DNA of 64,000 nt from Escherichia phage vB_EcoM_JNE01. Below, piece by piece: positions 21,191-61,898 of the stretch. The position numbers were made by a program, and so were the translations under genes. Location: sequence record OR670491; one strand, 5' to 3'. Numbering within the stretch: the stretch's first letter is position 1; each line of letters opens with the position of its first letter. The notes below the pieces were generated by a model. That model did not search any database. It saw only the letters and a list, made by a program, of their open reading frames with translations, and had not been told where the DNA came from.

Positions 21191-21928
21191 GTAATCACAA
21201 GTACGCATATGTAATCATATATAAACATTTCCGTGAGAAGTTTTGAGTACTGTATAGTATTAAGAATCACCGTAGGAGCACAGAATGATTAAGAATGCAC
21301 GGGAATGATTCAGAATGATTCAGTACTGATATGTCACTAAGTAGGCAGAGGAAGTCTGCCGTACTTTTTAGTTTCCAAGCTCCTTTTCCATTTTTCAAAT
21401 TACATCAAATGCAATCAAAAGTAATCACGCAATGATTAGTACTGAATTATTACTTTCACCTTAATTTCAAATACCCGTTGACCCTTCGGGGTAAAATTCC
21501 ATTACCCCTTGAGGCTCCAGCAAAAAGTTGGTTAGTACTCCATCCTAAATCTCGATCCTAAAAATTTTGGAGTACCTATGAAATAAAAGTTGGATCTTCG
21601 AAAGTTGAAATTTACGTTGGGATGATTAGGATTTGTGAACTATAATGTAGTTCAAGTTGGAGTACAGAGTGAGAACAATCTAGAGTACTGAAAGATGAAA
21701 TAACATCTTGACAATACAATTCAGTACTGTATAATGTTGTACATAGGGTGAGGGAACGGCGGCAACTGTTCCTTAATCTCAGTATCATGTCGTGAGACAT
21801 TACGCAAGTTATATCCTCCTGTGCATAGTGCTGGTGGTTATCTCTTGAACCTCATTTTTTCTCGTGAACTAAACAGTACTGATATTAACAGAATGGTAGC
21901 AGTACTGATATTAATCTAATGCATTATG

Positions 21929-22238: not shown

Positions 22239-22878
22239 CTGGATGTATGGATGGCTAAATCAAAATTTTATTTTGTTTTTTCCAATAGTTCCCCTACCGC
22301 GTGGGGATAGTTTCCCCGCAGTATCTGGTGTTAGATTTTTCTGAATCTGGAATCATTATCTTATAAACTGGGGGCAATGTCAACGGCCTGGACGGATATT
22401 TTTAAAAATTTTTTCAGTACTGAATTTTGGGCGTAACTATGCACCCGGTGGGCTTGAGTCTTTCTCGACTTGATGGAACTATTATACAGTACTGAAAAAA
22501 TAAAGCAATACCCTGGAAGCAAAAAAGTTTTAATTAATTTGCTTGCTATCCTGGGCCGGACTATGGTACTATATTTCAGTACTGAGAAAGTGCGTTTACC
22601 TGCTAGGGTGCGGGAGTGTATCCTTTTTTTATATCTTGAATTTTGGACGGATCTTCCCACCCCCTGGGGTATCCGCTTTCTCGCGTCTATGTAGTAATTA
22701 TACGCTTTTTCAGGATCAAGTCAATACCTAAAAACAAAATAATTGAAAATAATTTAACGCGTTTAAACGGCCCGTAACGCCCTGGAATGATTAGAATGGT
22801 GCAAATGTATAGCTTAGGTGTATTAATGCGTTAGAATGCGTCTGAGGCCGTTTTATGGGGTGTAGTAGTGATTTGGTT

Positions 22879-30889: not shown

Positions 30890-31033
30890 ATGAATCCAAC
30901 AGGTTTAAACTATAAAAGTTGTTCGGCGTTTACGAAAGCAAATAAAGCGAATGCACGTAAAGCGAAAGTACAAGAATACATCAAGCAAGGCATGACGCGA
31001 AAGGCGGCGATTCTAAAAGCTAAAAATAAATGA
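30890..31033 (+). CDS. candidate 47-aa basic protein
   Basis: TAA-ATG abutting start; hand-translated. Confidence 0.3.
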   Translation: MNPTGLNYKSCSAFTKANKANARKAKVQEYIKQGMTRKAAILKAKNK

Positions 31034-31113
31034 AAAAAGTGGTTGACTCCGGTCAGCCATTTTGCTATTATATATTCATTGAGAGATAGCTCACTAGCCC
31101 ACAGGGTGCATAA
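31033..31113 (+). promoter_or_regulatory. terminator/promoter hairpin plus conserved element AGCCCACAGGGTGCATAAGTGTATCTAT
   Basis: TTGACT inside inverted repeat, TATTAT -10, then conserved element. Confidence 0.45.
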
Positions 31114-31254
31114 GTGTATCTATTATATGAGTATTGAGTACTGAAAACTATTTTAAAAGTATTTGTAGAAAGTACTTGCAAACTATCTCAATAAGCGTAT
31201 AATGTTTTACATCGAAAGGGGAAACGGTTTCCCCTGATAATAAGGAAACAAATC

Positions 31255-31596
31255 ATGACTATCTCAATTGCTCAATCTAACTTTGAAAACGAAATCATCG
31301 CCCAGGCACTGCGTTTAAATGATGGTCGGGCCGAAATTAATTACGGTTTCAATTCAGGCGGTTGTGAAAAATATCAGTACTTTGTAACGGCTGATGGCGG
31401 TGTCCTGGGTATCAATACAGTTATTGTAAACATCCAAAAAATTAATTTCAATGATCCAGACGATAGCCAGTTTTACATCACTGGCGTAGACGTGAACTAT
31501 GAGGATGACTCACTAACTGATGATCACACTGGTGAGAAGTTAGAGAGTGCATACGGTGAAGATGATTATCAGTCAGTACCGGAAGATTTTGAATAA
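31255..31596 (+). CDS. hypothetical acidic protein
   Basis: 113-aa ORF; second promoter, hairpin and SD upstream. Confidence 0.6.
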   Translation: MTISIAQSNFENEIIAQALRLNDGRAEINYGFNSGGCEKYQYFVTADGGVLGINTVIVNIQKINFNDPDDSQFYITGVDVNYEDDSLTDDHTGEKLESAYGEDDYQSVPEDFE

Positions 31597-31998: not shown

Positions 31999-32178
31999 AT
32001 GGCTATCATCGCAAAAACTGAAATCGTTGGTCTGGATTCTATCATCATGACGTTTGAAGATCAAAAAGGTATGTATGTAGTTTCATATGGTGATTATGTT
32101 CGGGAGTATGAAACGGTAGACGAAGCCTTTGAAAGTTATATTCGCCAGGTGAATAAAGCATACGACGACTACCGCTAA
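31999..32178 (+). CDS. hypothetical small protein (59 aa, not in ORF track)
   Basis: hand-translated MAIIAKTEIVG...; promoter and SD AAGGAA. Confidence 0.45.
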   Translation: MAIIAKTEIVGLDSIIMTFEDQKGMYVVSYGDYVREYETVDEAFESYIRQVNKAYDDYR

Positions 32179-32517: not shown

Positions 32518-32715
32518 ATGATTAGCATGAAATCAGTACAAAAACAAATAGAAACATTATCAAAAATTAAACGTAAACAGTACTCGTTAGAATATACAAT
32601 CAATGGTAACTATCATCTAATGAAAGAGAATAATTTTATCGTCATTGATGAATCATTGCAAGTTATTAGTATAGTACTGAAAGCATTAATCAATGACAGA
32701 AAAAAATTAAAATAA
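32518..32715 (+). CDS. hypothetical small protein
   Basis: ORF; weak SD; start uncertain. Confidence 0.35.
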   Translation: MISMKSVQKQIETLSKIKRKQYSLEYTINGNYHLMKENNFIVIDESLQVISIVLKALINDRKKLK

Positions 32716-32804
32716 TCTATTGACAATATCCTCCAGTACTGGCATAATACTTACATCAAGACGAGAACGTCGCTAACCCATAGGGTGCACAAATGTAACT
32801 ATAT

Positions 32805-32895
32805 AATATCGATCAATAAATGATCAAAAAAGTACTGGATCAATTTAGCATAAGGCGTATAATTCTGATCAATTCTTGATCAAAGGCAATATACG
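32805..32895 (+). promoter_or_regulatory. GATC-rich palindromic cluster (five GATC sites, TGATCAA repeats)
   Basis: ATCGATCAATAAATGATCAA...GGATCAAT...TGATCAATTCTTGATCAA, upstream of the TraR-like gene. Confidence 0.35.
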
Positions 32896-33044
32896 CAGTT
32901 GAATTTATATAGACAGTACAAAGGCGTTACTATCCGTGGTAATGCTGGTGGATATGTAGTATCATATGGTTTGAATAAGATAAACACTAGTAGTATTATT
33001 GTAGCATTACAGTACTATAGTATTTTTATAATGAGGTTAAAATA

Positions 33045-33302
33045 ATGGCAGTAGGATACGCGAAAGACGGGGCCGAACAAGACGAGATTCACGCAGTGAT
33101 TCAGGCCGCCGTTAACCACGCTAGAAAGCAAATTAACGCACAAAGAGAATCACTGGTACATTGCCTCGACTGCGGCGATAAAATCCCTGAGAATCGACGC
33201 CAGGCCGTTATAGGGTGCATGTATTGTATTACTTGCCAGGAGGATCATGATAGTACTTTTAAAAGAGATCCGCGTAATTGTTGGCATAGATCTATGAGAT
33301 AA
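33045..33302 (+). CDS. TraR/DksA-family C4 zinc-finger protein
   Basis: CLDCGDKIPENRRQAVIGCMYCITCQ matches the CxxCGxxIPExRR...CxxCQ signature. Confidence 0.7.
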   Translation: MAVGYAKDGAEQDEIHAVIQAAVNHARKQINAQRESLVHCLDCGDKIPENRRQAVIGCMYCITCQEDHDSTFKRDPRNCWHRSMR

Positions 33303-35042: not shown

Positions 35043-35060
35043 AAATAATTGAAAAAGGGA

Positions 35061-35136
35061 TTGACTCCGGTCAGTCCCTTTGTTATTATATACGCATAGA
35101 AACAAATTAGCCCACCGGGTGCATAAATGTATCTAT
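35061..35136 (+). promoter_or_regulatory. terminator/promoter hairpin GGGATTGACTCCGGTCAGTCCC plus conserved element AGCCCACCGGGTGCATAAATGTATCTAT
   Basis: near-identical copies at 38336 and 41086. Confidence 0.45.
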
Positions 35137-35213
35137 TGTTTGCTGGTGGCTAGTACTGAAAACTATTTTTAAAAAGTACTTGCATTGTACTTAGAATCAA
35201 GTATAATGTTTTA

Positions 35214-35295
35214 CATCAGGACGGGGAACGAAATAAGTAACCCCGTTAAGTAGTCCAGGAGTAAGACATACGAAAAACTCCCCTGATAAAATAGT
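35214..35295 (+). ncRNA. candidate structured leader / small RNA (about 80 nt)
   Basis: second copy of the 24813-24895 element; differences preserve hairpin pairing. Confidence 0.3.
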
Positions 35296-35356
35296 TTGAC
35301 AATAGAAAGTAAACGAGTATAATACTTACATCAACCACTGATAAGGAAACATAAAA

Positions 35357-35632
35357 ATGCGGATTCTACTGACAGCTAACGAAATCGAACAAGTACTGAC
35401 TACTAATCTGGAACAATGGAAACGTGAAGCAGATATCCAGGCGGTTCAATGCCTTAACGATAAGTTAACGCCAGATGACTTAAGCACGATTGTTGATCCA
35501 CAATTTTATGAAGATATTCACGACACGTCTTTAAGCGTCGAGGATGTACTTGATAAGCACTACATTGATACTGATTTACATGTTTACGGTCGTAAAAACT
35601 TTATCACTATTCACGACATTTACAATACTTAA
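35357..35632 (+). CDS. hypothetical protein
   Basis: 91-aa ORF with third promoter and SD. Confidence 0.6.
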   Translation: MRILLTANEIEQVLTTNLEQWKREADIQAVQCLNDKLTPDDLSTIVDPQFYEDIHDTSLSVEDVLDKHYIDTDLHVYGRKNFITIHDIYNT

Positions 35633-38316: not shown

Positions 38317-38335
38317 AAAAGATTAAAAAAAGGGA

Positions 38336-38416
38336 TTGACTCCGGTCAGTCCCTTTGCTATTATATATCCATTGAGAGATAACTCACTGACCCATAGGGT
38401 GCGGAAGTGTATCTAT
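38336..38416 (+). promoter_or_regulatory. terminator/promoter hairpin plus conserved element GACCCATAGGGTGCGGAAGTGTATCTAT
   Basis: copy of the module at 35061 and 41086. Confidence 0.45.
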
Positions 38417-38538
38417 TATATAAGTATTCAGTACTGAAAACTATTTTTAAAAAAGTACTTGCATTGTACTTAGAATCAAGTATAATGTTTTATATCGAGA
38501 GGGGGAAATGGTTCTCCCTGGCAATAAGGAATAAAATC

Positions 38539-38760
38539 ATGACTACAATGACTTGCATTTACGCTTCCAATCGTCTGAATGATGCGGCCTTTAATGTTGA
38601 TTCAGAATATCAATGTTATCGGGATGAAAATAAAAAAGTTTTTGTAGTTGATAATAATGGTTTCCATATTGAATTACAATCCGGCTTCACTGGTGTTGAT
38701 GGTAAATCAGTATGGGGCGTACAGGATGATAAAGGCACATATCATTTTAAACGTAATTAA
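38539..38760 (+). CDS. hypothetical small protein
   Basis: start moved to MTTMTCIYAS downstream of promoter hairpin. Confidence 0.55.
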   Translation: MTTMTCIYASNRLNDAAFNVDSEYQCYRDENKKVFVVDNNGFHIELQSGFTGVDGKSVWGVQDDKGTYHFKRN

Positions 38761-60943: not shown

Positions 60944-61417
60944 ATGAGCACTCATTTTCTTTGCACTTATCAATCAGCATTTGCTTTAGCTCAAAAAATC
61001 GAATTCCTTTACCATACATTCATTTCCTTCGAGGATGATGAACACATCCAAGTAGGTTCAGAAAGACTTGATTTCAAGGAAAGTCATAACCAAATTATAT
61101 ATAAAAAATGTTTGTTATTCAGTGTAAATGAAAATTCAGTGAATATCAGGACAAATATAGACCCTTATGTTTGTTATTCCCCAACAATAAAGAGATATAA
61201 ATTATCTACTGCAAGGGGTTATTCAAATGATTATGAAGCTGTTGACATTTTCAGTGAAGAAGATTACTTCATGAATTTGTGTTTGTTCCCTGAACTGGAC
61301 GTATATAATCTTACTATCATTTCATACTTCAAGTTAAAGGGCATGGGTTCATTCTATATGGATCTGGATTGCGTTAATGAATTGTATGAGCATTTTTCTG
61401 GAGTACATAATGTATAA
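60944..61417 (+). CDS. FQ-S family protein (divergent)
   Basis: motif DYFMNLCLFP. Confidence 0.55.
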   Translation: MSTHFLCTYQSAFALAQKIEFLYHTFISFEDDEHIQVGSERLDFKESHNQIIYKKCLLFSVNENSVNIRTNIDPYVCYSPTIKRYKLSTARGYSNDYEAVDIFSEEDYFMNLCLFPELDVYNLTIISYFKLKGMGSFYMDLDCVNELYEHFSGVHNV

Positions 61418-61898
61418 GAATGTAATGATGACCGACTACGATTCAGTACTGAAATTTGCAGAAATCGTAACCAAAATACACTTTGAAGCTTACACTGATA
61501 ATCCATTCGGTGGTTTATTTTATAAGAAATTCGACTCATACGAACGACCAATCCTCGCTGATCTAAATTATGTAAATGATGAGAATGCAATGGAACGATA
61601 TTGTGAGTACTTCAAAGATAGTGATTTCAGTTTAAAAAGTGCATATATGTCATACGCACCTGGAACTGATATATCCATTAATGATGGCTATGATAAAGTC
61701 CTATACAAATCTGAAGATTTACCAAAGGATTATAGTGAGGATTCATATTTTCAGTACTTATGTATACATGATATCAATACTGTGAATGTATTATTCTTCT
61801 ATACTATTCTTCGTAAGAAATATCAGTTGACTAAATGTTTCTTTTTGGATTTTGAATTAATGTCCGATGCAGTACTGGAGTATCTCAATGCCGATTGA
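61410..61898 (+). CDS. FQ-S family protein
   Basis: start moved to MYKNVMMTDY; motif SYFQYLCIHD. Confidence 0.5.
   Translation: MYKNVMMTDYDSVLKFAEIVTKIHFEAYTDNPFGGLFYKKFDSYERPILADLNYVNDENAMERYCEYFKDSDFSLKSAYMSYAPGTDISINDGYDKVLYKSEDLPKDYSEDSYFQYLCIHDINTVNVLFFYTILRKKYQLTKCFFLDFELMSDAVLEYLNAD

Follow-up and report, generated by a model that had tools for sequence, protein, structure and literature searches.

What is a dense cluster of GATC sites doing within the terminal repeat of a jumbo coliphage, and which protein might read it? Across the stretch of DNA analysed here (64,000 nucleotides, hereafter the window), five GATC sites occur at 32811, 32822, 32838, 32867 and 32878, spread over 67-71 bp. 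An initial annotation had described them as TGATCAA repeats including a palindrome, placed them in an AT-rich spacer just upstream of a TraR-like gene, and likened them to Dam/SeqA-controlled elements such as origins and methylation-sensitive promoters. The cluster and its repeats were both recovered by direct count; read on the + strand, all five sites are GATCAA, three of them are TGATCAA (32821, 32866 and 32877), and TGATCAATTCTTGATCA constitutes a perfect 17-bp palindrome at 32866-32882.

Local enrichment was evaluated against a uniform-placement null. The cluster is the tightest run of five GATC sites in the window, spanning 67 bp versus 218 bp for the runner-up (P ~0.002), and it is also the tightest in fEgEco12, a 99%-identical phage whose sequence was assembled from eight stretches (353,740-bp unique genome; runner-up 240 bp; P = 0.002). 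With the GATC-richer terminal repeat as the sole background, P was 0.015, and the excess over background on which the initial annotation depended is thus present in the window, in fEgEco12 and in the terminal repeat alike. Across the fEgEco12 genome as a whole GATC is depleted, with 599 sites observed versus 1156-1270 expected (O/E 0.47). An AA or TT flank accompanies ~19% of the genomic GATC sites of that phage, so five of five sites flanked as GATCAA in one orientation represent an improbable outcome.

The window derives from a jumbo coliphage of the Asteriusvirus (121Q/PBECO4-like) type, and its coordinates minus 21566 give those of fEgEco12. By this offset, the left end of the packaged genome falls near window position 21567, which in turn places the cluster ~11.2 kb inside a direct terminal repeat of ~21 kb; the genome ends of fEgEco12 have been confirmed by PhageTerm and restriction digests (PMC13070987). 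Small + strand genes follow one another through this region, each with a sigma-70-type promoter of its own, and the matching region of the related phage CBB is regarded as early (PMC5259590). GATC density is ~4 per kb in the fEgEco12 terminal repeat versus ~1.6 per kb in the remaining genome, which sets the early region outside the GATC avoidance.

Upstream of the cluster lies a small early gene of 65 aa (32518..32715, + strand; phrog_36844, E 3e-46), equivalent to g028 of fEgEco12 (10952-11149). The gene immediately downstream of the cluster is a 48-aa ORF with a TTG start (32899..33045, + strand), assigned to phrog_38664 (E 4e-31) and equivalent to fEgEco12 g029; it is preceded by a putative ribosome-binding site, AAAGG (32882..32886, + strand), which is kept in PBECO4. 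The TraR/DksA C4 zinc-finger gene (33045..33302, + strand; Pfam PF01258, E 4e-9) comes only after it, the stop codon of the 48-aa gene overlapping the TraR/DksA start at 33045. The initial annotation was therefore correct in placing the cluster upstream of the TraR-like gene, but that gene is not the immediate target, and the spacer, far from being empty, contains two promoters and the 48-aa gene, which had been overlooked. On sequence grounds, the gene directly served by the second of these promoters is the 48-aa gene; the TraR/DksA gene is probably co-transcribed with it, as no separate promoter leaves room for a ribosome-binding site of its own.

Comparative sequence evidence indicates that the ORF at 32899-33045 is a real gene. 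The PBECO4 ortholog of its product is 60-63% identical, with the frame intact and mostly conservative replacements, and a homolog of 38% identity occupies the equivalent place in Erwinia phage Hallingskeid and is likewise assigned to phrog_38664 (E 6e-7). When 1.8 billion representative proteins were searched with a profile, the family proved small, with 17 clusters, nearly all of 47-74 aa. An AlphaFold model of the protein (pLDDT 88) displayed a generic fold; a Foldseek search of this model against PDB returned nothing (best E about 1), a BFVD structure search returned only uncharacterised small phage proteins, and Pfam detected no DNA-binding domain. Paralogy between the 65-aa and 48-aa genes was considered and discarded, as hhalign gave nothing; a 59-aa ORF at 31999 is only weakly similar (probability 38%).

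The cluster is part of a 329-bp module (32716-33045) comprising, in order, a promoter P1, a leader, the GATC boxes around a second promoter P2, and the 48-aa gene; the 3' end of the 65-aa gene (32715) abuts it. Alignment with phAPEC6 revealed that the whole module is missing from that phage, in which the stop codon of the upstream gene overlaps the TraR/DksA start. Copies of a 10-bp direct repeat, TTAAAATAAT, mark the module boundary on the + strand at 32707..32716 (left) and 33036..33045 (right, with the stop/start overlap TAATG); both are present in the window, whereas phAPEC6 retains a single copy. The module is also missing from UE-S1, ph0011 and several others, and 26 records have it. A mobile element with terminal inverted repeats was rejected, the module ends showing only the 10-bp direct repeat, and by sequence its loss is more simply viewed as a microhomology deletion. 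Because viable relatives lack the module, an essential origin or packaging signal is excluded. One GenBank record (EC.P1) has an end in or beside the leader/box region, as do several independent metagenome contigs, which probably reflects assembly breakage at the repeated leader sequence.

P1, identified by promoter scan at 32720..32748 (+ strand), is of sigma-70 type, with TTGACA, a 17-bp spacer, CATAAT and a TG extension (11/12 matches); it is kept in all relatives and has paralogous copies elsewhere within the terminal repeat. At ~+20 to +45 of its transcript is a leader box, CTAACCCATAGGGTGCACAAATGTAACT (32773..32800, + strand), the core of which is invariant across E. coli and Erwinia-type phages. 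This box (CCCAYNGGGTGC plus flanks) occurs in nine copies in the genome, all of them in the terminal repeat and all 3' of sigma-70 promoters. Each copy lies ~25-30 nt past a sigma-70 -10 hexamer; the paralogs in the window are near 22470, 24690, 26620, 31110, 35120 and 38400, and one pair is convergent, without an ORF between. A scan for the leader pattern matched only 121Q and one Hallingskeid-sized contig. On the - strand of a Hallingskeid-sized contig (9960-10070), the leader box is followed by an intrinsic terminator, forming an sRNA-like unit of ~85 nt. Rfam gave no match at the leader/box copy of the window, and no tRNA was found at the locus.

P2 is defined by the -10 hexamer TATAAT (32858..32863, + strand), with a predicted transcription start near 32870. 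Its -35 element in the window, TGGATC, is weak and falls below the threshold of a simple promoter scan. The upstream regions of Asteriusvirus relatives, Hallingskeid, metagenomic contigs carrying distant 48-aa homologs (P0003-P0013) and Pectobacterium phage CBB were compared. Among the Asteriusvirus relatives, GTATAATTCT, which includes the P2 -10 element, is invariant despite diverged flanks; the Erwinia-type clade exhibits TTGACW, a 17-bp spacer and AATAAT at P2, the length of the spacer being fixed and its sequence variable. The plan of P1, leader box, second promoter with GATC boxes, and gene was observed in almost all homologous loci. In the paralogous P1/leader/P2 modules at 31030-31260, 35050-35360 and 38330-38560, AGTACT-N19-AGTACT replaces the GATCAA boxes, and AGTACT-N15-AGTACT surrounds the promoter of the 48-aa homolog in CBB.

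The repeating unit of the cluster is a 15-bp dyad in which two GATC sites are separated by 11 bp, GATCAA-N3/4-(T)TGATC, with the consensus G-A-(T)-C-A-A-WWWW-T-G-(A)-T-C. Boxes 1 and 2 form dyad A, GATCAATAAATGATC (32811..32825), centred near -52 of P2, and boxes 4 and 5 form dyad B, GATCAATTCTTGATC (32867..32881), which covers ~-3 to +12 of P2 and is the core of the 17-bp palindrome. Box 3, GGATCAA (32837..32843, + strand), overlaps the weak -35 element and is the orphan half of a dyad, GATCAATACTTGATC, that is complete in the PBECO4 clade. The 12 aligned relatives all share the outer five bases of each arm of dyad A as well as its 11-bp spacing, and differ in the centre. Spacing within a dyad is constant, whereas dyad A lies closer to or farther from the promoter by 1-3 bp in different strains and lineages. 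An A6 run on the + strand (32826..32831), between dyad A and an AGTACT, differs in length among close relatives, over a range of 4 to 7; in near-identical phages it measures 4 (CMSTMSU), 5 (TH47), 6 (window) or 7 (WPEC5), which moves dyad A relative to P2.

The same units recur at other promoter positions in more distant relatives. In the Erwinia-type clade, dyad A is found just upstream of the -35 element, with its centre at ~-50 to -52, and the equivalent of dyad B, GATCAATAATTGATC, lies over the -10 element; across Erwinia-type clades, this dyad falls on the -10 element or in the -35/-10 spacer. The PBECO4 clade lacks dyad B and carries its second dyad over the -35 element. Nearly every gene-carrying lineage has at least one dyad and most have two, all at promoter-relevant positions, and in the dyad-bearing lineages at least one always overlaps the core promoter (+1 in the clade of the window). 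No dyads were found at the 48-aa homolog of CBB. Among Asteriusviruses, Hallingskeid and metagenomic relatives, the dyad arms, the 11-bp spacing, the -35 TTGACW and the length of the 17-bp P2 spacer persist as a footprint while the protein falls to 30-38% identity. Within the 354-kb genome there are five GATC-N7-GATC 15-mers, two at the cluster and three in unrelated contexts, and no second cluster of GATCAA pairs, the signature of a genome-wide regulon, was detected. On this comparison of sequences, we take the cluster to be a cis-regulatory element, both genuine and conserved, that consists of two putative operator dyads at the P2 promoter of a small accessory early operon.

An IMG/VR scan for GATCAANAAATGATCAA returned 90 loci, almost all of them chance matches. 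Some unrelated GC-rich viral contigs carry tandem units in which the same 15-bp dyad recurs (at 2816-2915 in one contig); these arrays, with a small-terminase-like gene on one side and HNH/large-terminase genes on the other, have the appearance of a packaging site.

A separate feature of these genomes is a strong bias in palindromes, the over-representation of which is unusual in phage. AGTACT is present in 301 copies in the window and in 977 copies in 354 kb, versus 119 (iid) to 211 (order-2 Markov) expected, and CAGTACTG has 221 copies versus 4-14 expected. AGTACT showed no wider flanking motif and, at 11-68 per 10 kb, was well over expectation in every 10-kb bin; 74 copies are present in a 14.5-kb Hallingskeid-like contig. 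Conversely, GCGC is absent from the 64-kb window, from 354 kb (185-354 expected) and from the Erwinia-type contigs, and no copies were observed of CCATGG (39 expected), ACCGGT (17) or CGTACG (15). The absence of these palindromes suggests strong restriction-site avoidance, or a phage nuclease of that specificity.

Which feature of the dyad is under selection was addressed with a tally of 15 distinct orthologous dyads, or 30 half-sites. G-7, A-6, C-4, A-3, T+3, T+6 and C+7 are invariant in all 15; three further positions are nearly so (-5, T in 13 and A in 2; +5, A in 14 and T in 1; +4, G in 14 and A in 1), and the centre is A/T-rich and variable. GATC is present in 26 of the 30 half-sites; the other four read GAAC (twice), GTTC and AATC, with the remainder of the dyad intact. 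Given these four, the recognised unit is not GATC alone, and the reader would not be simply Dam or SeqA.

The 15-bp frame resembles the high-affinity consensus GNNYAWWWWWTRNNC of the nucleoid protein Fis (PMC3302801). All 15 distinct dyads score 14-15 of 15 against this consensus (15/15 for dyad A and 14/15 for dyad B), perfect matches number only 16 in 354 kb, and all four half-site changes that abolish GATC remain within it. The anatomy of the dyads, their conservation, their positions relative to the promoter and this consensus match are direct observations. The reading that we prefer is that the region is an operator of P2 read by a dimeric protein, the leading candidate being Fis, with modulation by Dam; from sequence, we give this a probability of roughly 0.4. 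The naming of host Fis as the binder is likewise tentative, standing somewhat short of even odds. A conserved host factor is favoured because the half-sites stay constant while the phage protein diverges by more than 60%. Dam is present in the E. coli host, and the phage itself encodes an N6-adenine methyltransferase of the PF05869 'Dam' family (E 6e-33), annotated as a type I R-M subunit; methyltransferase genes of fEgEco12 lie outside the window at 61064-61588 and 279943-280803 (PF05869 Dam-family and C5-cytosine). Several points temper the Fis assignment. The Fis consensus is degenerate, and much of the match follows from the dyad itself, GATC-N7-GATC satisfying 4 of the 11 specified positions and the GATCA arms two more. 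A-6 and T+6 are not known as Fis requirements; their invariance goes beyond what Fis would need and would be explained equally well by additional selection for the Dam site or by a different binder with GAWCA half-sites. The weak P2 -35 element and the dyad-free CBB homolog also count against the P2/Fis reading.

Methylation could instead be the whole signal, either altering the use of P2 by RNA polymerase or creating hemimethylated same-face pairs for SeqA. Such a purely Dam/SeqA-based reading accommodates the prevalence of GATC among the half-sites in a genome where GATC is halved, and the invariance of A-6 and T+6, which Fis does not need; the 11-bp spacing sets paired GATC sites on one helix face, as SeqA needs, and at least two same-face sites within about three turns are indeed found (the 11-bp pairs 32811/32822 and 32867/32878). 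GATC also falls on the -35, -10 or +1 of P2, and both host Dam and the phage Dam-family methyltransferase exist. GATC is not the sole sequence requirement, however; A-3, A-2, T+3 and the A/T-rich centre are conserved as strictly as GATC, neither SeqA nor Dam has a known need for flanking AA/TT, and the four GATC-free half-sites sit in otherwise intact dyads, so we consider this reading quite unlikely. The methylation-sensitive promoter of the initial annotation survives in part: the arrangement is non-random and conserved, with box 3 on the -35 element of P2, dyad B on +1 and the dyads of relatives over the -10 or -35, but GATC is not the unit recognised. Given the promoter overlap, host Dam and the phage methyltransferase, such a promoter is still a reasonable proposal. 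Alternatively, the dyads may be operators for a phage-encoded regulator, in the simplest case the 48-aa product acting as an autorepressor, with monomers or a dimer on the GA(T)CA arms. Phage early regions often contain small modules that regulate themselves, and the dyads lie directly upstream of the 48-aa gene in most lineages that carry it, the only such place in the 354-kb genome. Against this stand the structure and domain searches described above, which yielded no PDB or Pfam DNA-binding match and only uncharacterised BFVD proteins, and the constancy of the half-sites opposite a protein at 30-38% identity, an uncommon pattern where repressor and operator co-evolve. Together with the CBB homolog, which has no dyads, this constancy leans against strict autoregulation, and a phage-encoded regulator appears possible but doubtful.

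Readings unconnected with transcription initiation fared less well. The clustering of GATC and its 11-bp phasing are reminiscent of oriC, with the local excess expected of such an element present as the densest cluster in 354 kb, and would suit a replication origin or a DnaA-oligomer site; similarly, TGATCA(A/G) repeats bring to mind the TGATCA hexamers of the P1 pac site, and an unrelated GC-rich phage carries 4-5 tandem TTGATCAAAAAATGATCA units between its terS-like and terL genes. The related viable phages phAPEC6, UE-S1 and ph0011 nevertheless do without the module, the nearest TTWTNCACA DnaA box, at 31363 on the - strand, is more than 1.4 kb away, 11.2 kb separate the cluster from the genome end that was confirmed by experiment, and in every lineage its position is linked to a promoter and to the start of a gene. 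The origin suggested by the initial annotation thus did not withstand analysis, and an origin or pac function is extremely improbable. A search for IHF sites found no WATCAANNNNTTR match in 32600-33100. An element acting in RNA, through GAUCAA repeats or a hairpin of the palindrome in the 5' UTR that controls translation or stability, would be consistent with the fact that P1 transcripts necessarily read through the boxes, and with the potential of dyad B to form a 7-bp hairpin ending just 5' of the ribosome-binding site. The predicted folding of 32755-32905 was, however, no better than that of shuffles (z = -1.55), Rfam offered no match, and the hairpin is missing in the PBECO4 clade; in the Erwinia-type phages, the P2 start is downstream of the dyad, and P2 transcripts there would thus not include the dyad. 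We therefore regard an RNA-level role as very unlikely.

Returning to Fis as the preferred reader, we infer the binder's identity, the sign of the regulation and whatever effect methylation has, as follows. P2, of sigma-70 type, would drive a small early operon of the 48-aa gene followed by TraR/DksA, and each dyad would be bound by a dimeric DNA-binding protein, for which the host nucleoid protein Fis is the candidate. Occupancy of dyad B would block RNA polymerase at P2, and occupancy of dyad A would place the protein in the UP-element zone; activation that depends on the face of the helix fits poorly, given the 1-3 bp drift in the distance between dyad A and the promoter. As most half-sites are Dam sites, adenine methylation at the outer major-groove positions would probably modulate occupancy. 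Expression would in this way be tied to the growth state of the host and to the state of the phage DNA with respect to methylation or replication.

The closest parallel to the dyads is the inside end of IS50/Tn5, at which Fis binding was reportedly described by Weinreich and Reznikoff in 1992 (J Bacteriol 174:4530). In 222 plasmid records, its 15-mer, GATCAAGATCTGATC, was confirmed to lie upstream of aph(3')-IIa. Like dyads A and B, it comprises a 15-bp frame with two GATC sites 11 bp apart and GATCAA...TGATC arms, and a nucleoid protein and Dam are said to act there on the same bases, as is proposed here for the phage. Fis is reported to bind the IS50 site only when the overlapping GATC sites are unmethylated. 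The IS50 site differs in governing the use of a transposon end, whereas the phage dyads lie at a promoter, and in having a third, central GATC and a Fis score of 13/15. Other methylation-responsive loci, namely Mu mom, agn43 (OxyR), pap (Lrp), IS10 pIN and the Tn5 tnp promoter, likewise place GATC in a regulator site or at -35/-10/+1, with two to three sites in a few tens of bp, and on a mobile element or phage. They are read by OxyR, Lrp or RNA polymerase itself, the 15-bp GATCAA-N-TTGATC dyad is present in none of them, and methylation dependence has been demonstrated there, whereas the phage locus is known from its sequence. Fis-controlled sigma-70 promoters such as fis, rrnB P1 and Mu early share with the phage locus Fis-consensus sites upstream of and over the core promoter, an A/T-rich upstream region and a growth-phase-sensing logic, but the upstream phage site is near -52 rather than at the classical -71, and the phage sites have the invariant A-6 and T+6. 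The GATC clusters of oriC and SeqA and the TGATCA(G) array of P1 pac resemble the phage locus in GATC enrichment, TGATCA-type hexamers and helical phasing, and differ from it in that the phage locus is without DnaA boxes, away from the genome end, dispensable and tied to a promoter.

A bolder version of the preferred reading, which we consider unlikely, would make the dyads an epigenetic growth-state switch, in which Fis binds only un- or hemi-methylated copies and thereby times a TraR/DksA-type modulator of RNA polymerase. From one terminal-repeat promoter, the phage would then sense both the replication, or Dam-proficient origin, of its DNA and the speed of host growth, and the IS50 inside end would represent an independent origin of the same Dam-gated Fis dyad. 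Box 1 contains an overlap of a Dam site with ClaI (ATCGATC, 32808-32814), and digestion of virion DNA with ClaI at this position would report its methylation state; ClaI is among the restriction digests in the fEgEco12 paper, the resolution of which is too coarse for a Dam block at box 1.

Almost nothing has been learned of how the hundreds of tiny terminal-repeat genes are controlled in Rak2/121Q-like jumbo phages. The locus offers a clean, conserved and tractable cis-element, with two operators at defined promoter positions, for which natural variants are on hand in the phAPEC6 deletion allele and the half-site variants. Should the Fis/Dam reading be false, the dyads would be an ordinary operator for a small regulator; should it be true, they would illustrate, in a phage, the gating of a nucleoid protein's binding by methylation, and would link host physiology to the expression of a DksA-like RNA polymerase effector.
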